NCBI GenBank assembly: GCA_964570935.1
Contig: CAZMZP010000050.1
Coordinates: 891-64,890, forward strand
DNA: 64,000 nt
Origin: an uncultured bacterium
GTDB lineage: Bacteria; Eisenbacteria; RBG-16-71-46; JAFGJU01
Direction of reading: 5' to 3'
The notes under the pieces were generated by a model. It was not told the origin of the DNA. It saw only the letters and a list, made by a program, of their open reading frames with translations, and did no database searches. Shown here one piece after another: positions 3,107 through 64,000 of the stretch. The position numbers and the translations under genes are program-made. Each line of letters opens with the position of its first letter. The stretch's first letter is position 1.

Positions 3107-4564
3107 CTACGCCACGCGCGCGGGCTCCTCGCTTTCTCCGGGCACGTGCGCCTCGTCCCCGGTCTCCTTGAGACCGTACAGCTTCATCCTGTAGCGCAGC
3201 TTGTCCCGTTTTATCCCCAAAAGCTCGGCGGCCTTCGTTTGGTTCCATCCGCAGATTTCCGAAGCCCTGATGATGAGCGCCTTCTCTATCTCTTCCACGG
3301 CGGACTCCAAAGCGAGGCCCTCTCTCGGAATCTCGCCGCCTGAGAGCACGCTCTGGATGAGGTCGACACACGAAAGGGCGCCGGCGGTCACCCGACCCCC
3401 GGTCAGCTGAACATGTCTGGCCTCGAGCGTCTCGCCGGACTCGAGCAGTATAATTCTCTCGAACAGGTTTTTCAACTGCCTAATGTTCCCGGGCCATTCG
3501 TACTCCGTCAGCGCGCGCTCCGCGTCGGGCGACATCCGCCTGAAGTTCTTGTGGAACACCTTGTTGAAGTGGCCCATGAAATGAACCGCCAGCGGCAGTA
3601 TGTCTTCCCTGCGCTCGCGCAGCGGCGGTACGCAGATGGGCAATACTTTGAGCCGATAGTACAGGTCTTCCCTGAACGCTCCCTCTCTCACGGACTTCTC
3701 GAGGTCTCTGTTGGTGGCGGAAATGATCCTGACGCTCACGGTCAAGTCCTTCGTGCCGCCGACGCGTCTGAACGTCATCCTCTCCAGCACTTTCAGGAGC
3801 TTGACCTGCACCTGCAGGCCCATCTCGCCCACCTCGTCCAGGAAGAGCGTGCCGCCGTTTGCCACTTCGAGCAGTCCCTGCTTCTGGAATCGCGCGTCGG
3901 TGAACGCGCCCTTCTCGTGCCCGAAGAGCTCGCTCTCCAGAAGCTCCGTCGGTATCGCTGCGCAGTTTATGTCCAGAAACGGCTTGTCCCATCTGGAGCT
4001 CATCTCGTGTATGTAGTGCGCCACGAGCTCCTTACCCGTCCCGCTCTCGCCTTCTATCAGCACGCTCGTGGTGTCGCTCTTCGCCACCTGTTCCGATATT
4101 TCGTACACGCGCCTTATGCTCTGGCTTTGCCCCATGACGTATTCACGCGAAAACCTGTCCCGCGCCGTCTTCCGCCTGTGCTGGAGCTCTCTCTCCAGGG
4201 AGTGCCTCTCCATCTCCCTCTTGACGATAAGAGCGATCTGCTTCAGGTTCACCGGCTTCACGACAAAATCGCAGGCGCCCAGTCTCATCGCGTTCACGGC
4301 CGATTCTACGTCGCCGTAGGCGGTCATGATTATGACGCAGGCCGGGTTTCCCTCTTCCCGCATCCGCTCCAGGACCCTGAGTCCGGTCGTGTCGGGCAGC
4401 CTCAGGTCCATCAGCACCATGTCCGGGTTTTCTTCCATGGCCAGCCTGAACCCCTCTTCCCCCGTCTGGCCGCACGTCACGGAGTAGCCCTCTTCGGCAA
4501 GAGCCTTGCTGAGAAAGTGCCTCGTCGTTTCCTGGTCTTCAACTATCAGAACCGTTTCAGCCAC
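3107..4564 (-). CDS. sigma-54-dependent response regulator (NtrC family enhancer-binding protein)
   Basis: 485 aa; receiver domain (LIVEDQ..., MDLRLPD), AAA+ sigma-54 interaction domain (GESGTGKE, ESELFGHEKGAFTDA GAFTGA-type motif), C-terminal Fis-type HTH. Confidence 0.9.
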   Translation of the reverse strand: MAETVLIVEDQETTRHFLSKALAEEGYSVTCGQTGEEGFRLAMEENPDMVLMDLRLPDTTGLRVLERMREEGNPACVIIMTAYGDVESAVNAMRLGACDFVVKPVNLKQIALIVKREMERHSLERELQHRRKTARDRFSREYVMGQSQSIRRVYEISEQVAKSDTTSVLIEGESGTGKELVAHYIHEMSSRWDKPFLDINCAAIPTELLESELFGHEKGAFTDARFQKQGLLEVANGGTLFLDEVGEMGLQVQVKLLKVLERMTFRRVGGTKDLTVSVRIISATNRDLEKSVREGAFREDLYYRLKVLPICVPPLRERREDILPLAVHFMGHFNKVFHKNFRRMSPDAERALTEYEWPGNIRQLKNLFERIILLESGETLEARHVQLTGGRVTAGALSCVDLIQSVLSGGEIPREGLALESAVEEIEKALIIRASEICGWNQTKAAELLGIKRDKLRYRMKLYGLKETGDEAHVPGESEEPARVA

Positions 4565-6518
4565 GTTTCCTGACCCCCTCGTTTCGTCCGGTCGAGCTCG
4601 TGTTCCCTTCTGCGGCAGCCGGCAGCCTCACGGTGAAGGCGGCTCCCTTTCCCGGCTCGCTCGTTACCGACAGTTCGCCTCCGTGAGCCCGCACTATCTC
4701 GTGAGTGATGTACAGACCCAACCCGGTACCGCCCGGCTTCGTCGTGAAGAAGGGCTCGAAGATCCTGTCCAGGTTCTCGGGCTGAATCCCGGGGCCGGAA
4801 TCGCCCACCGTGATTTCCACTCCGCCGCAGGACTCCGGCTCGGCTTCCTCTACGCTCGCCATGTCGATCTTGATCTCGCCGCCCTGCGGCGTCGCTTCCA
4901 CCGCGTTCCTTATCAGATTGATGAACACCTGCTGCATCTGGTCCGCGTCCATCTGCACGGGTTGCGGCTTACCGGTCACCGACATGTCCAGACTCAGTGC
5001 CTTGTCCGACGCCGAGGTCCCCAGCGACCTGAGCGCCCTCTCCACCACGTCTTCAACGCAGGCCTCGGCCAGAACGAGCTCTTGCGGATGAGTGACGCTG
5101 AGAAGGTCCTGTATGATCCGCTCGAGCCGCGCGACCTCCCTCAGCAGGAATTTCACGTTGTCCGCTTCGGGCCCGGTGTCCCCGAACTGCCTGCTCATGT
5201 ACTGAATTCCCGCGGCTATGCCGGAGAGCGGGTTTCTCACCTCGTGCGCCACGCTGGCAGCGAACCTGCCCAGCGCGGCCAGCCGGTCCAGCTGCCGCAC
5301 CTTCTCTTCCAGCTTCCTGGCCGGCCTGAGGTCCGTGAACGTCACGATCACGCCCCGGACGTTGTCCCTTTCGTCCCTGAGGAGGCGTGATGTCATCCTG
5401 ACGGGCACCGTGCCCTTCGACCGCTTGCTGACCACCGTGTCCACCGCGGTCTGTTCCTCCCCGTGGAGCAGTGCTCTCGTCACTGGCGATTGCTCCTCCG
5501 TCTCGGGAGGGATGAGAAAACCGCTCTTGGCGCCGGCCACTTCCTCGGCGCTGAAGCCCGTCACCGCCTCGGCGGCCTCATTGAAGGCCTGCAGCCGGCC
5601 GCAGAGGTCGAAGGCCACGAGACACTCCCCCATCGAGTCCAGTAGTCTCTGCCTGAACTCCTCACCCACCCGGAGAGCTCCGTACAGCCGGTTGCTCTCC
5701 AGCACTCCGGACACGTTGAATCCAACGGACTCGAGCATGGAGAGGTCTCCGGGCGACATCTCGTCCGCGCCCTTCCGCGCCGCCGTCACCATCCCCAGCA
5801 GGGGGAACACGTCGCACTTTACGCAGGATTCCCTTCTCCTGGACGGGTCGAATCCCTTCTCGTGGAAGCACAGCGTCGAGGAAGCCTCCCAGCAGAACCC
5901 CGGCCTTTCCAGGTACGCTCCGCACTCCTGTTTTATGCATTTCTTGGCTTCACGGCACGAGAGCCACTGTCGAGACGACACGAGCGGCACCACGGCCATC
6001 GCGTGGCCGGGGCCGGAAACATCTATCTCGAGCCGACGGCCGACTTCTTCCGACGGCATCACGGAAGTCTGCATGTGCCACAGTGACTCCCCGAGCTTGC
6101 CCTCGAGGTCGGACGGCCGCACCACGACTTCAGAGGTCCGGACCTCGTCCTCCCCGTAGACCGTGTGCCGTCCCTGCATAAGCCCCGTTTCCCTGTTCAT
6201 CAGCCAGAGCCCCACGTCGTCCATTCCGAGAACTCTGTGCATGTAAGAGGAGACGGTCTGAAGGGCCTCTTCCGGCTTCACGTTCGACAGCATGCTCTCT
6301 GCTATCTCGCGGACGACCGAAAGCTTGGTGTCGGTCTCTATCAGCCGGCGATGGGTGGTCTCCAGGGCGTCTATCAAATCCTGGCAGACCCTGCTGAGAG
6401 TTGTCTCGTCGTCCAGGGAGCTGTAGTCGGACGGGTTGAGAGTCGTGAAGGATCGGAGGTCCTCCACTCTCTTGAGGAGAGGACGGTTGTCTCTGCGGAT
6501 TTCCTGACGCTTCGGCAC
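4557..6518 (-). CDS. cytoplasmic sensor histidine kinase (GAF - Cys-rich insert - PAS - HisKA - HATPase)
   Basis: 653 aa; H-box HEVRNPLSGI, G2 box GTGLGLYITHEIV; no transmembrane segment; 8-nt overlap with the downstream NtrC-type regulator gene suggests a cognate pair. Confidence 0.9.
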   Translation of the reverse strand: MPKRQEIRRDNRPLLKRVEDLRSFTTLNPSDYSSLDDETTLSRVCQDLIDALETTHRRLIETDTKLSVVREIAESMLSNVKPEEALQTVSSYMHRVLGMDDVGLWLMNRETGLMQGRHTVYGEDEVRTSEVVVRPSDLEGKLGESLWHMQTSVMPSEEVGRRLEIDVSGPGHAMAVVPLVSSRQWLSCREAKKCIKQECGAYLERPGFCWEASSTLCFHEKGFDPSRRRESCVKCDVFPLLGMVTAARKGADEMSPGDLSMLESVGFNVSGVLESNRLYGALRVGEEFRQRLLDSMGECLVAFDLCGRLQAFNEAAEAVTGFSAEEVAGAKSGFLIPPETEEQSPVTRALLHGEEQTAVDTVVSKRSKGTVPVRMTSRLLRDERDNVRGVIVTFTDLRPARKLEEKVRQLDRLAALGRFAASVAHEVRNPLSGIAAGIQYMSRQFGDTGPEADNVKFLLREVARLERIIQDLLSVTHPQELVLAEACVEDVVERALRSLGTSASDKALSLDMSVTGKPQPVQMDADQMQQVFINLIRNAVEATPQGGEIKIDMASVEEAEPESCGGVEITVGDSGPGIQPENLDRIFEPFFTTKPGGTGLGLYITHEIVRAHGGELSVTSEPGKGAAFTVRLPAAAEGNTSSTGRNEGVRKRG

Positions 6519-17281: not shown

Positions 17282-17452
17282 TTACGGCGTTGCGCCGAGT
17301 GCAGTCGCGATGGCCTCGAACACGCGGATAAGCTCGTCTCTGAGCAGGATTATCGCGGCGATGACGGCGATCGCAACCAGGGCTATGAGCAGCGCGTACT
17401 CGGTTATCGCAGCACCCTTGTTACCCTTGAACAGATTCTTCAGGAACCTCAT
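17282..17452 (-). CDS. flp: Flp family type IVb pilin
   Basis: 56-aa ORF absent from the ORF track: MRFLKNLFKGNKGAAITEYALLIALVAIAVIAAIILLRDELIRVFEAIATALGATP; conserved G/xxxxEY processing motif and hydrophobic core; strong SD AAAGGAGGA 8 nt upstream; heads the tad operon. Confidence 0.75.
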   Translation of the reverse strand: MRFLKNLFKGNKGAAITEYALLIALVAIAVIAAIILLRDELIRVFEAIATALGATP

Positions 17453-17552
17453 TTCTCCTGTCCTCCTTTCACACGGCCTCTAACACTTAACTAATCGGCA
17501 GCAAAACCTTCACTCCTTACGTCTTTTTCTGACAACACCTCCTTGTGCGAAC

Positions 17553-17575
17553 CGCAATCACGCCTTGGGATTGCG
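17553..17575 (-). promoter_or_regulatory. perfect inverted repeat CGCAATC-N9-GATTGCG in the flp leader
   Basis: 7-bp perfect palindrome arms seen directly; shares the GCAATC/GATTGC half-site with the palindrome at 62185-62204. Confidence 0.3.
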
Positions 17576-17682
17576 TTCCCGTGGTTGCCGCCCGCACACT
17601 ATTGTAGCGGGCGAACCGCTGTCAAGTTAATTATGCCCTCCTTCGGTTTGCCGTGGCGCGACTGTCTTCGCGGGACCCAAAA

Positions 17683-17698
17683 AGCAAACCCTATGCCA
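17683..17698 (-). promoter_or_regulatory. candidate sigma-54 (-24/-12) promoter upstream of flp
   Basis: Minus strand reads TGGCATAGGGTTTGCT versus consensus TGGCACG-N4-TTGCW; GG and GC elements correctly spaced; about 230 nt upstream of the flp ATG. Confidence 0.35.
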
Positions 17699-17943
17699 CG
17701 GCCGCGCTTTCCAGAGCCGATTTTCTAACTGATTTGAGGGTAATGTGTTGCAGGCAACGGACGGCCGCCATTGATCTCTCAAAAACCCGCCTCAGCCTCT
17801 GTTTAGCGCGGCATTTCTGTCGCACTAGAGGACAATTATGCCCTGGCGGCTCTTGATGTGCTCGCGGAATTCGAGCGGTTTCGGCGGTCGTATCTTCTTC
17901 AAGGTCAGCGAATCACACCACCACGAGCCGCCGGGCGCGGTTC

Positions 17944-23598: not shown

Positions 23599-24714
23599 CT
23601 ACTCCAACAGCTCTTCGCACACGTCGTGCGTGCTGCCGCAGGCAGGCCGGGCTGCGCGCGCCTCTTCCGTGGCCCGCCGTCCGGCGCCCACGACCCTGTT
23701 CCTGCCGGCCCTCTTTGCGCTGAACAGCGCGCCGTCCGCCGACTCCAGCAGAGCTCCGATGGTCTTGCCGTCTTCGGGATAGGTCGCGGCGCCTATGCTG
23801 CAGCTTATCTCGCCGCAACGCACCTCGGGGAAAATCTGAGTGACCACCGCAGACCGGATCCTCTCCGCAAGCACGAGGGCCCCTTCCTTCGGCGTCTGCG
23901 GCAGTATTATCAGAAACTCGTCTCCCCCGTACTTGGCCACGGTGTCGATGCTTCTTGCCGTCACCTTGATGACGGCCGCCAGCTGCTTCAACACCGTGCT
24001 GCCCTTGAGATGTCCAAACTTGTCATTATAATCTTTCAGGTGGTCCACGTCCAGCATTAGAACGGAGAAGAACTGGCGGAACCGCGACGCCCTGTCCAGC
24101 TCCTTGTGCAGAGCGTCCTTGAGGAACCGAAAATTGAACACCTGCGTGAGCTCGTCGGTGACGGCCTGTTCCTGCACCTGCGCGTACAGCTTGGCGCTTT
24201 CGATCGCCATTGCGGTCTGATTGGCCAGCACGCTCAGAACGCCCAGTTCGGCTTCGCTGAACGTGGCGGTGCCCAGCTTGTTCACCGCTATCAGGACTCC
24301 CAGCACATTCTCCCGCGCCTTCAGCGGCGCGCAGATGCAGCCGCCGGTGCTGGGTGCTCGCGGCCCCTCGAGCTCCGGCCTCGGCTCGTCCGACACCCGG
24401 GGTATCAGGACGGCCTTACCCTCCATCATCACCCACCACGCAATGCCCCTCTCCCCGGTGCGCTCGTAGCGCTCCATCGGCGCTTCCGCCCCGTCCGCCC
24501 TTCTCCGCTTCGCGTACTTCACGACGACCCCGTTTTCCAAGGTGATCAGGAAGACCGCTTCGGCCCCCAGCACCTCCAGGGCGCAGGAAAGCACCTTGGA
24601 AAAGGTCATTCTCCTGTCCAAGCCGGCAGTAATCAGACCCGTGATTTCCACCAGGGTGTTAAGGAATTTTTCTTCACGAAGCACAGAACTCATCCTTCGT
24701 GCCCCTAACCGCAT
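23599..24714 (-). CDS. GAF domain diguanylate cyclase (GGDEF)
   Basis: 371 aa; N-terminal GAF; intact GGDEF (KYGGDEFLIIL) with RxxD I-site (RSID) 5 residues upstream. Confidence 0.85.
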   Translation of the reverse strand: MRLGARRMSSVLREEKFLNTLVEITGLITAGLDRRMTFSKVLSCALEVLGAEAVFLITLENGVVVKYAKRRRADGAEAPMERYERTGERGIAWWVMMEGKAVLIPRVSDEPRPELEGPRAPSTGGCICAPLKARENVLGVLIAVNKLGTATFSEAELGVLSVLANQTAMAIESAKLYAQVQEQAVTDELTQVFNFRFLKDALHKELDRASRFRQFFSVLMLDVDHLKDYNDKFGHLKGSTVLKQLAAVIKVTARSIDTVAKYGGDEFLIILPQTPKEGALVLAERIRSAVVTQIFPEVRCGEISCSIGAATYPEDGKTIGALLESADGALFSAKRAGRNRVVGAGRRATEEARAARPACGSTHDVCEELLE

Positions 24715-24769
24715 GAAAATGCACCGTTCCGCACTGAACCGACGTTGAGAAAAGCAAGTTCTATGCCAG

Positions 24770-25099
24770 TTACTCTGGAGAGGACTTCGTGAGGATTTCC
24801 CGTAAGAGGGGTCGCACCACCCTGAGCAGAACGACCAGGATTACGGCGACCATGGCGGCCGGCACAAACCACAGGTCGCCGAGGTCAATGTGTCCGACGC
24901 GTAGCATCCCGAAGAACTTGAACAGGGCGTATACCAGCGCCACCACCAGCACAACCGCAAGACCCAGCGAGACGCTCTTGCTGGCTGTCTGAGCCCTGCG
25001 GCGGCGGGACTCCGCCAACCCGGGCCACGCGGCTGCACCCCCCGTCCCGCGGCGAGCCGACGGCCTGGGAAAGTTGCGGCGCCTGTCCTCCAGTCTCAT
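24770..25099 (-). CDS. hypothetical small membrane protein (two TM helices)
   Basis: ORF only; start uncertain (an internal Met would give about 45 aa); co-directional between the M28 peptidase and the cyclase. Confidence 0.3.
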   Translation of the reverse strand: MRLEDRRRNFPRPSARRGTGGAAAWPGLAESRRRRAQTASKSVSLGLAVVLVVALVYALFKFFGMLRVGHIDLGDLWFVPAAMVAVILVVLLRVVRPLLREILTKSSPE

Positions 25100-25114
25100 G
25101 TCACACTCCGCGCG

Positions 25115-38142: not shown

Positions 38143-38466
38143 CTATGACCACCACCTCTAAAGCAGACCTGAAATGAAAATCCCCACCGGTCTGCCGTGT
38201 GACAGAGACTTTTGAACCTGGACATGCCCAGGTGGGCGCCAGACTCCTGGTCGTCGCGCCCCCGCCGGTGCGGGTCCCGCTGTTACCCGAAGAACAGGCT
38301 CCCTCAGAACAACTGTTGGCTCAAAAACGCCCACATCAACACGTGCACGGTAGGGATTTTCAGTTTACGGCTTTAGCCCTACTTCTGTTCGATTCCGGCA
38401 GATCTACTTGCTCTTGCGATTCCTCCTTCCCTGAAGCTCTGCCTAGAATTGGCGGAAGCTGGTCTG

Positions 38467-59703: not shown

Positions 59704-61995
59704 CTACGATGCGGTCTGTCCGTCCACGCTTCCGGTGATGAGGAGAGAGGCTTTTCTCAGGTCGCAGATGTCCTTGGGCCAGTATACCTGGACTGCCTTG
59801 AACTGGAGCTCCGGCGCCGGAGAGACGTATCTCACCGCGCCCAGCCGCCGCAGAAGGTCGTCTACTCTCCGGAGTATGGCGCCCCCCTCTCTGGGGGTCT
59901 GGGGGGAAATCACTACGAAGGTCGCCTCGCCGGTTCTGCCGACGATGTCCACCTCCCGGATGGTCTTCCTGAGTCCGCCGGAGAACTCCTCCAGGAACGC
60001 GGCTCTCCACTGGTCTCCGAGCCTCTGGAAGGCCCCGGTGAGTCCTTCGACTTCAAACACAGTGATGCAGAACCCTATCCCGTACCGGTCGTACCGCTTG
60101 GATTCCTCGTTTATTCTGGTGAGCAGCGTCTGCGCGCCGAGCAGGCCCGTTTCCCGGTCGGTCTCTCCGTACTGCTGGGCCTGCATGGACACGAACGCCC
60201 GTTCCAGGCCGTGAGCCGAGTATCCGCAGAAAGACCTGAAGAGCTCGCTCTCGGTCTCGTTGAACGACGGCGCGCCGCCCTCCTTCAGCCGGAGCAGGAC
60301 GCAGGCGCCCAGGCACCTCGTGCCGGCTCTCAACGGCCCCGCCAAGAACGACGTGACTCCCAGTCTTTCAAGTTCGAGGTTCAGGGTCTCGTCGGCCGCC
60401 TCACCCGAGATGCAGTTCATGTCCTTGACGCATTCGGCCATGAGAAGCTCCTTGGCTTTGGTCAGCCTCTCCGTCTCCTCCATGCCCTCGGTGCCGCCCA
60501 GTTTGTCCACCGACCAGCTTCTGCCGTCCTCGCACGCCACCAGACACGCGTCCGCCTTGAGGATCCTGACTCCCTCACTGGCTATGATCCTGACCACTTC
60601 CTCGACCTTCTGCGCGGACATCAGAGACGAGGCCACCCGGTTCAGCTCCGACAGCGCTTCCGCCTGTTCCCGCAGGCCGAGCATCGAGACTTCCCTGCCC
60701 AGCTCCTTTCCTATGAACCGCGCCACTCTGTCGAAGGCGCCCAGATAAGCTTCCAACTCGACGTTGCTGACGCGCACTGAGTCGAACACCAGCAGACCGT
60801 GCCAGCGGTCGGCCTTCATCGGGACGCATATGATGCCGAGCTCTTCGCCCTCCATCGAGGGCGCGACAATCCCGCCGGGAAGCAGCACCTGCGCCTTCCC
60901 GGACGTCAGGGCTCGGCCCAGGAATCCCTTTCCGCCGAATATGACTCCGGGAAGCGCCGGGTCGGCCACCTTGACCGACGTCGCGTACAGGACCAACCGT
61001 CCGTCCCTCCACTTGTCCGGCAGGTAGACGTAGCAGTCCCCTTCCACCCTCTCGGCCAGTGACGCGGCCAGGAACTGCACCTTCTCCGGGAACGAAACCT
61101 CCCTGATGAGCGCGTCCTCGGCGGCCTCTCTCAGAGTGAATTCGAGCGTCTTGTTCGTCACCGCGCTGTACTGCAGCGCCCTTTGCAGCGTCTCCGTCAC
61201 TCGCTCGGCCAGCTTCTCCAGCAGATGGAGGTCCTTGGCGTGGAATCTCTGCGGGTCTCTGATGCTGCTCACGTTGAGCACGCCGATGGTGCGGCCGCCC
61301 GCGACCAGAGGAACACACATCGCCGCTTTGACTTCACTCCTATCCCTTCCGGGCTTGAGAAGCTCGTTACCGGGTTCACCGGAAATGAGCATTGGTTTTC
61401 CGTCCCTGGCCACCCTGCCCGCAATCCCCTCTCCCATACTCTGCCGGGTGGAGACCACGGTCTCTCTACTCAGCCCCTGCGCGACCGCAATGCGCAGGTC
61501 CTTGCCCTTCTCGTCCAGCAGCATTATGGACCCGCACTGAGCTCCCGTGCATTCGATGGCAAGCTCCAGGATCCATCTCAGCAGCTTCTGCCTGTCTAGG
61601 GCAAGACTCAGGCTGTCGGCCAGTTTGCCCAGTACGTTGGATTCCTCCTCCCCCAGCGCCGGCTCGCAAACGGCCTGCGGCTCGGCCGCCGGTTTGGCCC
61701 CCAGGGCTTCTGCGGGTGTCAGAACCATGACGCCCGGGCCCAGCACTTCAACCAGAAGGGGTCTCGAATCGGGGTCGCCCAGGACCACTGCGTCCAGTTC
61801 CACCGAACCCAGCGCGGGCACGCTTGTCGTGGTAGGAAGCCTCATTATCTCACCGACCTTCAAAGCCACGGACGCCGCGTCCTGATCAGCAATCAGAACC
61901 AGCTCCCAGCGGCCGTCCTTGACGAGTGCCGGGATGAGGTCGAGGTCGGCCTCTTTGAGGCCGACTATGGCGAGTCTCTTTTTGTTATTGTCCAT
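59704..61995 (-). CDS. multi-GAF protein with degenerate GGDEF domain retaining the RxxD I-site (candidate c-di-GMP receptor)
   Basis: Start MDNNKKRLAIVG at 61995; the track start at 62049 would bury a sigma-54 promoter in the CDS; three GAF domains; C-terminal GGDEF-like domain with REVDIVGRTGEATF (compare PleD RESDVVARYGGEEF). Confidence 0.75.
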   Translation of the reverse strand: MDNNKKRLAIVGLKEADLDLIPALVKDGRWELVLIADQDAASVALKVGEIMRLPTTTSVPALGSVELDAVVLGDPDSRPLLVEVLGPGVMVLTPAEALGAKPAAEPQAVCEPALGEEESNVLGKLADSLSLALDRQKLLRWILELAIECTGAQCGSIMLLDEKGKDLRIAVAQGLSRETVVSTRQSMGEGIAGRVARDGKPMLISGEPGNELLKPGRDRSEVKAAMCVPLVAGGRTIGVLNVSSIRDPQRFHAKDLHLLEKLAERVTETLQRALQYSAVTNKTLEFTLREAAEDALIREVSFPEKVQFLAASLAERVEGDCYVYLPDKWRDGRLVLYATSVKVADPALPGVIFGGKGFLGRALTSGKAQVLLPGGIVAPSMEGEELGIICVPMKADRWHGLLVFDSVRVSNVELEAYLGAFDRVARFIGKELGREVSMLGLREQAEALSELNRVASSLMSAQKVEEVVRIIASEGVRILKADACLVACEDGRSWSVDKLGGTEGMEETERLTKAKELLMAECVKDMNCISGEAADETLNLELERLGVTSFLAGPLRAGTRCLGACVLLRLKEGGAPSFNETESELFRSFCGYSAHGLERAFVSMQAQQYGETDRETGLLGAQTLLTRINEESKRYDRYGIGFCITVFEVEGLTGAFQRLGDQWRAAFLEEFSGGLRKTIREVDIVGRTGEATFVVISPQTPREGGAILRRVDDLLRRLGAVRYVSPAPELQFKAVQVYWPKDICDLRKASLLITGSVDGQTAS

Positions 61996-62037
61996 TACCA
62001 AGCGCCCAAGAGGGACTTTGACACAAGCTCCCCACTG

Positions 62038-62053
62038 AGCAACACCCATGCCA
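62038..62053 (-). promoter_or_regulatory. candidate sigma-54 (-24/-12) promoter
   Basis: Minus strand reads TGGCATGGGTGTTGCT versus consensus TGGCACGG-N4-TTGCW: one mismatch, exact spacing; 44 nt upstream of the ATG at 61995. Confidence 0.45.
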
Positions 62054-62184
62054 AATCCCGGACAGACGTGCCGCGGATTGCCCCCGACTCGTACACCATA
62101 ACTCGCTCGCTTCCAGCTTGATACGGGAGTAGGCGGGAACTCGGCCGGCCTCCGGCAGTCCGGCTGTCGAGAGCAGGTTTGCAG

Positions 62185-62204
62185 AATGCAATCCCGATTG
62201 CATT
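62185..62204 (-). promoter_or_regulatory. perfect palindrome AATGCAATC-CC-GATTGCATT, candidate enhancer/UAS
   Basis: 9-bp perfect inverted repeat; about 135-150 bp upstream of the -24 element, the typical distance for an enhancer-binding-protein site. Confidence 0.35.
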
Positions 62205-62307
62205 TTGACTATCCCGGCGGAAGCCGGGAGTGCCCGGGTGCGGCGGCCTCTCGTCCAGTCCGCTCGAGGCCCGCCGCGGCCGCCGGGTGGACTCCGCCGG
62301 GGCCGCC

Positions 62308-64000
62308 TCAGCGCCGGATCAGCAGGCTCCCTGTCCCGACGTTACCCGCGCCGTCTATCGCACGCAGTCCGACCGTGTGTTCGCCGGTCGTCAGAGTGTC
62401 CAGCATTATCGAGAAGTCTTCGGTGCGCGAATCCAGCAATCCGTCCGCCGCCTGCGCCAGTGTCCAGCCGCCGCTGTCCAACGAGTAGTGCAGTTCCGTG
62501 ACTGCGCTCAACGCGTCGGACAGAGTGCCGGTGACCGTCGTACCCTGCGCCGTGTCTTCGCTCTTCAGGCGCGACACGACTGGAGCGGTGTTGTCCACGT
62601 CGAACGGAACGCCGACTGCTTCCGAAGTGAGCGCCTCCGAAGGCAGGTTTTTCGGCAGGTCGGTTACCTCCACACGAAGCAGGTATGAGCCGTCAGGCCA
62701 GTCAGACGTGTTCCACACGAACACCGTCTCCTCGATTGCGAGGTCGATGAGTTTCCACTTCTCTTCCTCGGGGCGCCTGTAGCTGACCGTAAACTCCAGC
62801 TTGTCGCCGTTCGGGTCCGAGGCTTCCCACGTCGCCGTTCTGAGCGTTCTCGCCCACGCCGCTTCCTCGACGGCCCTTTCCACATCGTCCTTGACCACTG
62901 AATACTCGACCCTGAGGCCTCCGGGAAGCGTCTGCGACACCCTTTCCGGCATTCTGTCGATGCCGCCGTCCGCGAACTGGACGCCCTGCGGGTAGACCCT
63001 GACGCCGGTCACCACGGGCGCCAAGTTCTTCTTCGCGAACGCCAGGCTTATCTTCCTCAGGCCGGGCGTCGACGCCCCCGCGCCCGACGTCAACCTGGCC
63101 TTCCACTGCACGAACCTCCCCGGCGGGATGTCCGCGACGGCGCCGCTCCTGGCCACGTCTTCGCTCCAGTCGCTCCAGGTCCGATTCGGCGTTTCCGAAT
63201 TGCCGCTCCTCAACTGCAGTTGCAGCGAGGCGCCGCGAGGCACGTCCGCGTTCCACGACAGCGCTCCCCAGCGCGAGACACCGCCCGTGTCGAACGCCTT
63301 CGAAACGAGCGTGCCGGATCGCGAAGCCTTCGGTCCGGCGGAGAACACGCGGGCGTTGTTGCCGGTGCTGAAGACCAGTCGGCCTTCGCTGTTCATCATG
63401 TCCAGCACCTGCGAGTCGGCCACCCTGTCCACGAGCTCGGTTTGACTTTGGCTCAGGCAAAGGATGCGTCCCTCGTCGCCCGTGCCCATCAGCAGGCTGT
63501 CGCCGGCGGCGGCCCAGAGACAGTAGACCGTCGAGCGCCCGGAGGTCCAAACCTTGGACGCGGTGCCGTCGTCCGTAATACGGTAGACGCTCGAACCCTG
63601 CTTTCGTTCATCCTGGTCTTCGCCGGACTGAGAAGGCGCGTCATCCAGGGCAGGTCCGGCCACGGTCCTGGTGCGCGCAATGGCCGCGGCATACGTGACT
63701 CCGCCGTCCACGCAGGCAACGTCCCTCACCTCCTGCTCGTCGCAGTCGAACAGCACTCGACCCTTACCGTTCGCGTCGATGGCGAGCACGAGCCCGGTGC
63801 CCTCCGTGCCGACGACCAGCCGGCCCTTCGCGTACTGGGCGCACATCACGTGTCTCTCGCCCGTCTCGTAGAACACCTCGCCCTTCCCGTTCGGACGGAT
63901 CTTGTAGACCTTCCCTCCGTCGCCGGTCCCGGCGTAAAGGTTCCCGCTATCGTCGAACGCGAGGCACCAGACGTAACTTTCACCGGTTTCGAAGAACACA
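62308..64000 (-). CDS. secreted beta-propeller / fibronectin-III-like repeat protein (5'-partial, continues beyond window)
   Basis: ORF open to the window edge; repeated blade-like segments (VFYETGE.HV.C...GTGDGG); C-terminal Ig/FN3-like segments. Confidence 0.6.
   Translation of the reverse strand, partial: VFFETGESYVWCLAFDDSGNLYAGTGDGGKVYKIRPNGKGEVFYETGERHVMCAQYAKGRLVVGTEGTGLVLAIDANGKGRVLFDCDEQEVRDVACVDGGVTYAAAIARTRTVAGPALDDAPSQSGEDQDERKQGSSVYRITDDGTASKVWTSGRSTVYCLWAAAGDSLLMGTGDEGRILCLSQSQTELVDRVADSQVLDMMNSEGRLVFSTGNNARVFSAGPKASRSGTLVSKAFDTGGVSRWGALSWNADVPRGASLQLQLRSGNSETPNRTWSDWSEDVARSGAVADIPPGRFVQWKARLTSGAGASTPGLRKISLAFAKKNLAPVVTGVRVYPQGVQFADGGIDRMPERVSQTLPGGLRVEYSVVKDDVERAVEEAAWARTLRTATWEASDPNGDKLEFTVSYRRPEEEKWKLIDLAIEETVFVWNTSDWPDGSYLLRVEVTDLPKNLPSEALTSEAVGVPFDVDNTAPVVSRLKSEDTAQGTTVTGTLSDALSAVTELHYSLDSGGWTLAQAADGLLDSRTEDFSIMLDTLTTGEHTVGLRAIDGAGNVGTGSLLIRR

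Follow-up and report, generated by a model that had tools for sequence, protein, structure and literature searches.

The gene for a GAF / degenerate-GGDEF protein that is specific to Eisenbacteria is most likely driven by a sigma-54 (RpoN)-dependent promoter together with an upstream enhancer, as judged from the DNA sequence and its conservation. The gene lies in the window, a 64-kb stretch of DNA from a member of Candidatus Eisenbacteria that also holds a tad/flp pilus locus and that carries nearly all of its genes on the minus strand. A sigma-54 promoter with an upstream activator site, both of them conserved in every related genome found, is very probably real. The features of the region are as follows.

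59704..61995, minus strand: target gene, 763 aa, defined by Pfam and by orthologue alignment, with its ATG at 61995..61993
62015..62027, minus strand: predicted transcription start near 62027 (12 nt past the C of GC, following the usual -12 convention) and conserved block CTTGTGTCAAAG
62038..62053, minus strand: putative sigma-54 -24/-12 element TGGCATGGGTGTTGCT, from the pattern match and its presence in 13 of 13 loci
62096..62108, minus strand: weakly conserved block GAGCGAGTTATGG, at about -75
62179..62191, no strand assigned: conserved dyad TTGCA-TTC-TGCAA (site 2), putative core of an upstream activator site (UAS)
62185..62204, no strand assigned: perfect palindrome AATGCAATC-GG-GATTGCATT, made up of the right half of site 1 and the left half of site 2
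62198..62210, minus strand: degenerate second dyad AGTCA-AAA-TGCAA (site 1)

A putative -24/-12 element upstream of the target gene

The initial annotation had placed a sequence one mismatch away from the sigma-54 consensus on the minus strand at 62053-62038. Direct reading of these positions gave the same result: the strand carries TGGCATGGGTGTTGCT, which differs at a single position from TGGCACG-N4-TTGCW, with GG at 62052/62051 (-25/-24), GC at 62040/62039 (-13/-12) and a spacing of exactly 10 bp. The distance to the ATG at 61995 had been given as 44 nt; we counted 42 nt from the end of the motif, or 43 nt from the C of GC. When up to one mismatch is allowed, 0.47 matches to the sigma-54 pattern are expected per 64-kb window, and at least one appeared in 36 of 100 shuffles. 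A lone motif in 64 kb is statistically unremarkable, a point that counts against the sigma-54 reading, and it is the comparison with relatives that decides. The more specific pattern TGGCAT-N5-TTGCT is present in three exact copies (62053..62038, 24768..24753 and 17698..17683), all on the minus strand, which is the coding strand, and each just upstream of a gene; none of 100 shuffles reached three copies even with one mismatch allowed.

We found no sigma-70-like promoter between 61800 and 62500, and terminator prediction over the same interval gave no call. Transcription from the predicted start near 62027 would produce a leader of ~32 nt. The block at this start, CTTGTGTCAAAG, shows a column identity of 0.734 in the upstream alignment described below, while the block at about -75 reaches 0.663 with the family consensus RGTTRCRG. 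An Rfam search returned no match near the upstream region or leader of the target, and so no riboswitch or known RNA, Qrr included. The upstream gene stops at 62308; since it is co-directional and ends before the intergenic signals, these can only serve the downstream gene.

The target gene and its start codon

The 763-aa product consists of a short N-terminal domain, a GAF domain (residues 133-270) and a degenerate GGDEF domain (residues 612-718; the Pfam match to GGDEF is weak). In all orthologues the GGDEF motif is degenerate (GRTGEATF) and an RxxD site (REVD) is kept five residues upstream of it. PelD-like proteins provide an analogy for a degenerate GGDEF domain with RxxD. Since the GGDEF motif is degenerate but RxxD is kept, this analogy suggests that the product is a c-di-GMP receptor rather than a cyclase.

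Two ATG codons in the same frame could open this gene, one at 61995 and one at 62049, the latter inside the sigma-54 motif. An in-frame stop was present 6-18 nt before the ATG aligned with 61995 in nine of the 13 loci, the two closest relatives having an in-frame TGA or TAG at -6, and all 16 full-length orthologous proteins start within ~2 residues of the Met at 61995. The start at 62049 in the ORF track is therefore an artefact, as the initial annotation had argued, and translation starts at 61995. The window lineage has lost the upstream stop, which gives an 18-codon extension opening inside the -24 element.

Conservation and fixed spacing in 13 orthologous loci

Twelve orthologous Eisenbacteria loci were fetched and, with the window locus, gave a set of 13 with protein identities of 58-90%, for which the 345 nt preceding the start codon were aligned. 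All 13 carry TGG[CT]A[CT]-N5-TTGC at the homologous place, 54-60 nt before the start codon, and all keep the GG/GC spacing. When both strands were searched, TGGYAY-N5-TTGCW occurred exactly once per locus in 11 of the 12 fetched loci, always at the promoter position; the twelfth has TTGCG in place of TTGCW. The best-conserved 13-mer of the alignment is TTGCATTCTGCAA, the dyad at 62191..62179 (column identity 0.905), and the second-best is TGGCATGGGTGTT, from the -24/-12 element (0.888). Both stand above the gene's first codons, and the median column identity is 0.54.

The distance from the centre of the dyad to the -24 G (the first G of GG) is 133-134 bp in 12 of the 13 loci and 130 bp in one, yet the ~120 bp between dyad and promoter are unconserved and contain indels. 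On the other side, the upstream gene stops anywhere from ~23 to 117 nt before the dyad in the gene tables. A fixed dyad-promoter spacing over freely mutating DNA is what looping with a face-of-the-helix constraint predicts. Since the conserved blocks are short and split by unconserved DNA with indels, the region is not coding, and we rejected a coding origin of the upstream conservation on these grounds. The architecture of a sigma-54 promoter served by an enhancer-binding protein, first proposed from the window sequence, thus gains support from the relatives, in which the -24/-12 element and the dyad are the top two conserved blocks at a spacing of 133-134 bp, and from the lack of a sigma-70-like promoter or terminator in the interval searched.

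Two adjacent dyads and a lineage-specific palindrome

The conserved dyad, site 2, is centred on 62185, about -158 from the predicted transcription start. TTGCA-N3-TGCAA is exact at this place in 11 of the 13 loci and has one mismatch in the other two. The copy at 62179..62191 is the sole match in the window, and no match was seen outside the orthologous position in 127 kb of related loci. Site 1, at about -177, has its centre 19 bp further upstream and is more degenerate: its family consensus is tnTCA-AAA-nGCrA, and in all 13 loci it matches TTGCA/TGCAA at 6-8 of 10 half-site positions, with the CAAAA and GC positions invariant or nearly so. As candidate enhancers we counted dyad-symmetric sites roughly 80-200 bp upstream of a -24/-12 element, a range that includes the dyads at -158 and -177. 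In the loop region between dyads and promoter, the loci compared showed no conserved match to an IHF site, which counts against the sigma-54 reading.

The initial annotation had singled out a perfect 9-bp palindrome with a CC spacer as the UAS. The palindrome is there, at 62204..62185 on the minus strand as AATGCAATC-GG-GATTGCATT, with CC as the plus-strand spacer and with its right arm overlapped by site 2. Its placement about 135-150 bp further upstream holds as a position, the exact span being 132-151 bp from the 5' edge of the motif. What survives of its role is a conserved upstream dyad and not the 9-bp palindrome as the conserved unit: pairing is 9/9 in the window and 8/9 in three loci (L012, L001 and L009), and falls to 3-6/9 in the nine others. 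The perfect palindrome is specific to the lineage and consists of the inner halves of two adjacent dyads, which were extended to 9 bp here. A search for the same palindrome elsewhere, which the initial annotation had suggested as a check, found no second copy of the 20-mer in the 64-kb window even with 3 mismatches. Perfect 9-bp palindromes with a spacer of at most 6 are not rare in the window, which has eight where Markov simulations give 2.9; only those rich in A/T are, at 0.07 expected in these simulations. Another of the eight, GTCGGCCTC-N3-GAGGCCGAC at 61945-61965, falls within the target gene (codons 11-17) and is absent from L001.

Could the palindrome instead form a hairpin in RNA, as a terminator or other 3' structure belonging to the upstream gene or as part of a small ORF, next to a sigma-54-like motif that is a chance match? 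The upstream gene has its stop 104 nt before the perfect inverted repeat, a 72-codon ORF starts at 62203, and about one window in three would contain such a motif by chance. The repeat, however, has no T tract and received no terminator call; a G+C-rich hairpin followed by a T run, the mark of an intrinsic terminator, was not found at the palindrome. The minimum-free-energy fold omits the hairpin (z = -1.15). Its arms decay among the relatives without covariation while the overlapping dyad sequence stays fixed, the intervening DNA is too poorly conserved and too rich in indels to be coding, and the sigma-54 motif is kept in every locus. That the sequence is kept, and not the pairing through compensating changes, points to a protein-binding site rather than an RNA structure. 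We rejected the terminator or RNA hairpin on the missing terminator call, the unused hairpin and the decay of the arms, and give this explanation a negligible probability.

A second alternative takes the dyad as the operator of an ordinary regulator, which could repress transcription or activate a sigma-70-type promoter, with no enhancer involved and with the -24/-12-like block functional or not. Many families of regulators typically bind short, A/T-rich dyads, and -158 is a long way out for an enhancer. Against this, the site lies 130 bp away, at a strict spacing, from the one conserved block that resembles a promoter, which fits looping better than repression; there is no sigma-70-like promoter nearby; the upstream gene is co-directional and ends before the dyad, so that no divergent gene would be served; and the dyad equals the known operator of an enhancer-binding protein. 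An ordinary operator is accordingly very unlikely, and the sigma-54 promoter with an upstream enhancer remains our preferred reading.

Candidate promoters of the same type at flp and at a cyclase gene

The other two copies of TGGCAT-N5-TTGCT give two further candidate promoters.

17683..17698, minus strand: second promoter TGGCATAGGGTTTGCT, exact TGGCAT-N5-TTGCT, 232 nt before the flp ATG at 17451
24753..24768, minus strand: third promoter TGGCATAGAACTTGCT, exact TGGCAT-N5-TTGCT, 38 nt before the ATG at 24714 of a GAF-GGDEF cyclase

The near identity of the target's -24/-12 element to the one upstream of flp, remarked on in the initial annotation, was seen again in our reading, since TGGCATAGGGTTTGCT at 17698..17683 shares TGGCAT-N5-TTGCT with it. 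All six relatives that have sufficient upstream sequence keep the flp element, the most distant of them at 66% CpaB identity. About 60 nt downstream of it, on the same strand, is a sigma-70-like sequence, TTGACA (17625..17620)-N18-TAGTGT (17601..17596), and five relatives keep both elements; from these sequences, two tandem promoters seem to precede flp (17596-17698, minus strand). About 125 bp upstream of the sigma-54 element, a conserved block at 17805-17843 (minus strand) reads GGGCATAATTGTCC...GACAGAAATGCCGCG. Its family consensus, G.GCAaAA...GAAAAaGCC, differs from TTGCA-N3-TGCAA, and its sequence and position make it a likely enhancer. The long flp leader also contains an inverted repeat, ACGCAATC-N9-GATTGCGG at 17552-17576 (minus strand), which is kept in the two closest relatives and not in the 66-67% clade.

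The cyclase behind the third promoter has an intact motif, YGGDEF, and an RSID inhibitory site, and is predicted to be active. Its sigma-54 motif begins one base past the stop of a small membrane-protein ORF (24770-25114, minus strand). The cyclase region (23599-25114, minus strand) heads polysaccharide genes of XrtA/PEP-CTERM type, among which a deacetylase, TIGR03006, scores above its cut-off. Elsewhere in the window we noted a 6S RNA gene at 38177-38359 (minus strand; Rfam RF00013, 64.3 bits), upstream of the RNase Y gene, and six tRNA genes.

The sites upstream of the three sigma-54 promoters differ. TTGCA-N3-TGCAA is absent at the flp and cyclase promoters and in the flp loci of relatives; since the dyad is missing at the other two sigma-54 sites, no regulon backs it, which weighs against the sigma-54 reading of the target promoter.

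Candidate activators

One regulator of the appropriate class and an adjoining kinase are encoded in the window.

3107..4564, minus strand: NtrC-family response regulator (REC, sigma-54 interaction domain, Fis-type HTH; GAFTDA loop), with no other enhancer-binding protein in the window
4557-6518: PAS histidine kinase, adjoining the response regulator

LuxO is among the best NCBIfam and PDB matches of this regulator, which nevertheless falls below every NCBIfam equivalog cut-off (AtoC, NtrC, LuxO and PEP-CTERM PrsR), scoring 386 bits vs a cut-off of 800 for LuxO; we therefore did not assign it to any of these named families. Its GAFTDA replaces the canonical GAFTGA loop that contacts sigma-54. 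The variant is found in 119 of its 120 best homologues, a count that a word-based search may have favoured. The regulator/kinase pair is syntenic with tad genes in a distant relative, L022.

If this regulator and its PAS kinase were the activator of the target promoter, flp, the cyclase gene and the target would form one regulon. The window encodes no other protein of this class, the three promoters have TGGCAT-N5-TTGCT in common, and LuxO ranks among its best matches. However, neither the rest of the window nor the flp loci contain TTGCA-N3-TGCAA, the conserved block upstream of flp has a different sequence, synteny with tad genes suggests a local role, and the protein is under all equivalog cut-offs, including that for LuxO. 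We consider this regulator an unlikely activator of the target gene; it more likely serves flp. No activator gene was found next to the target in the gene tables of any of the 13 loci. Given this, the synteny with tad genes, the different flp block and a dyad without other copies, we favour an activator encoded outside the window, which is probably where it lies.

Several of these points also count against a sigma-54 promoter as such: there is no activator gene beside the target in the 13 loci, the window's only enhancer-binding protein has GAFTDA instead of the canonical GAFTGA, and rpoN was not found within the 64-kb window. On the other side, the window's NtrC-family regulator shows that sigma-54 activators are in use in the lineage, and full-length proteins of this kind (enhancer-binding proteins) are numerous in Eisenbacteria. 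We found no literature on sigma-54 in Eisenbacteria.

Proposed mechanism and significance

We propose that sigma-54 RNA polymerase would sit as a closed complex on the GG (62052/62051) and GC (62040/62039) of the promoter. An NtrC-family enhancer-binding protein, with a DNA specificity that may be LuxO-like, would bind the two adjacent dyads, the strong one near -158 (TTGCA-TTC-TGCAA) and the degenerate one near -177 (AGTCA-AAA-TGCAA). Once activated, this protein would oligomerise, contact the polymerase by looping ~130 bp of DNA and open the promoter using ATP. Transcription would then proceed from near 62027 through the leader of ~32 nt, with translation from the ATG at 61995.

The locus is a well-behaved case of a textbook mechanism in a little-studied phylum, and no new mechanism is involved. 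With it, the uncultured phylum Eisenbacteria has its first well-supported sigma-54 promoters and a candidate motif for an enhancer, and sigma-54 is tied there to genes for pili, polysaccharide and c-di-GMP signalling. The locus also corrects a gene-caller start in the window lineage, where the chosen ATG sits within the promoter, so that it is useful for annotation as well as being an entry point to the regulator. The invariant dyad and its spacing of 133-134 bp make a clean testable case for the identity of the activator and for helical phasing. A broader proposal, which we offer tentatively and think unlikely, is a switch across the whole phylum in which a response regulator of LuxO-like specificity and sigma-54 turn on a multi-GAF, degenerate-GGDEF/RxxD c-di-GMP receptor, as part of a sigma-54 'surface' programme that includes Flp pili and the cyclase-headed polysaccharide locus. 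If it were true, the operator would match that of Vibrio LuxO because a single subfamily of NtrC-type regulators has conserved an ancient recognition code.

Comparison with known systems

Sigma-54 is linked to cell-surface functions in other bacteria, for example in PilR-pilA and FleQ. The window resembles such control of pili, polysaccharide and c-di-GMP in that its promoters precede genes for the Flp pilin, a GGDEF cyclase and a degenerate-GGDEF protein. It differs in that its three promoters have unlike upstream sites and that flp adds a conserved sigma-70-like promoter.

In the NtrC/glnAp2 class, a closed complex forms at GG-N10-GC and is activated by looping and ATP hydrolysis. The Eisenbacteria locus shares GG-N10-GC and dyads built around TGCA that lie over 100 bp upstream, whereas the half-sites are TGCACC-N5-GGTGCA for NtrC vs TTGCA-N3-TGCAA in Eisenbacteria, and the locus has neither a nitrogen-metabolism context nor a conserved IHF site.

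The closest likeness in operator sequence is to the qrr genes of Vibrio, which are sigma-54-dependent and activated by LuxO, a member of the NtrC family, through the operator TTGCA-W3-TGCAA (PMC11443567), with one or two copies at -89 to -120 (PMC11443567). As in that system, a -24/-12 promoter has a 13-bp dyad TTGCA-N3-TGCAA upstream of it, with exact half-sites, and the Eisenbacteria locus likewise pairs a strong site with a degenerate neighbour. The LuxO ChIP-seq sites of V. cholerae qrr2/qrr4 are ttgcaatttgcaa, and the site of the Eisenbacteria locus L004, TTGCAATTTGCAA, agrees with them letter for letter (PMC10328515). The differences are that the target is protein-coding (763 aa) and not a small RNA, that the dyads at -158/-177 are ~40-60 bp further upstream than the Vibrio sites, a distance that counts against the sigma-54 reading, that the central triplet is not always A/T (TTC in the window, ATT in L004), and that the phylum is another one, with a window regulator at 386 bits vs the LuxO cut-off of 800. 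For a comparison of recognition helices with the window regulator we looked for the DNA-binding domain of LuxO among solved structures and found none. Given a protein-coding target, no Rfam match to Qrr and a regulator far below the LuxO cut-off, the Eisenbacteria locus is not a member of the LuxO-qrr system; what it has is a LuxO-like operator, and by analogy the upstream dyad would work like a LuxO-type enhancer.
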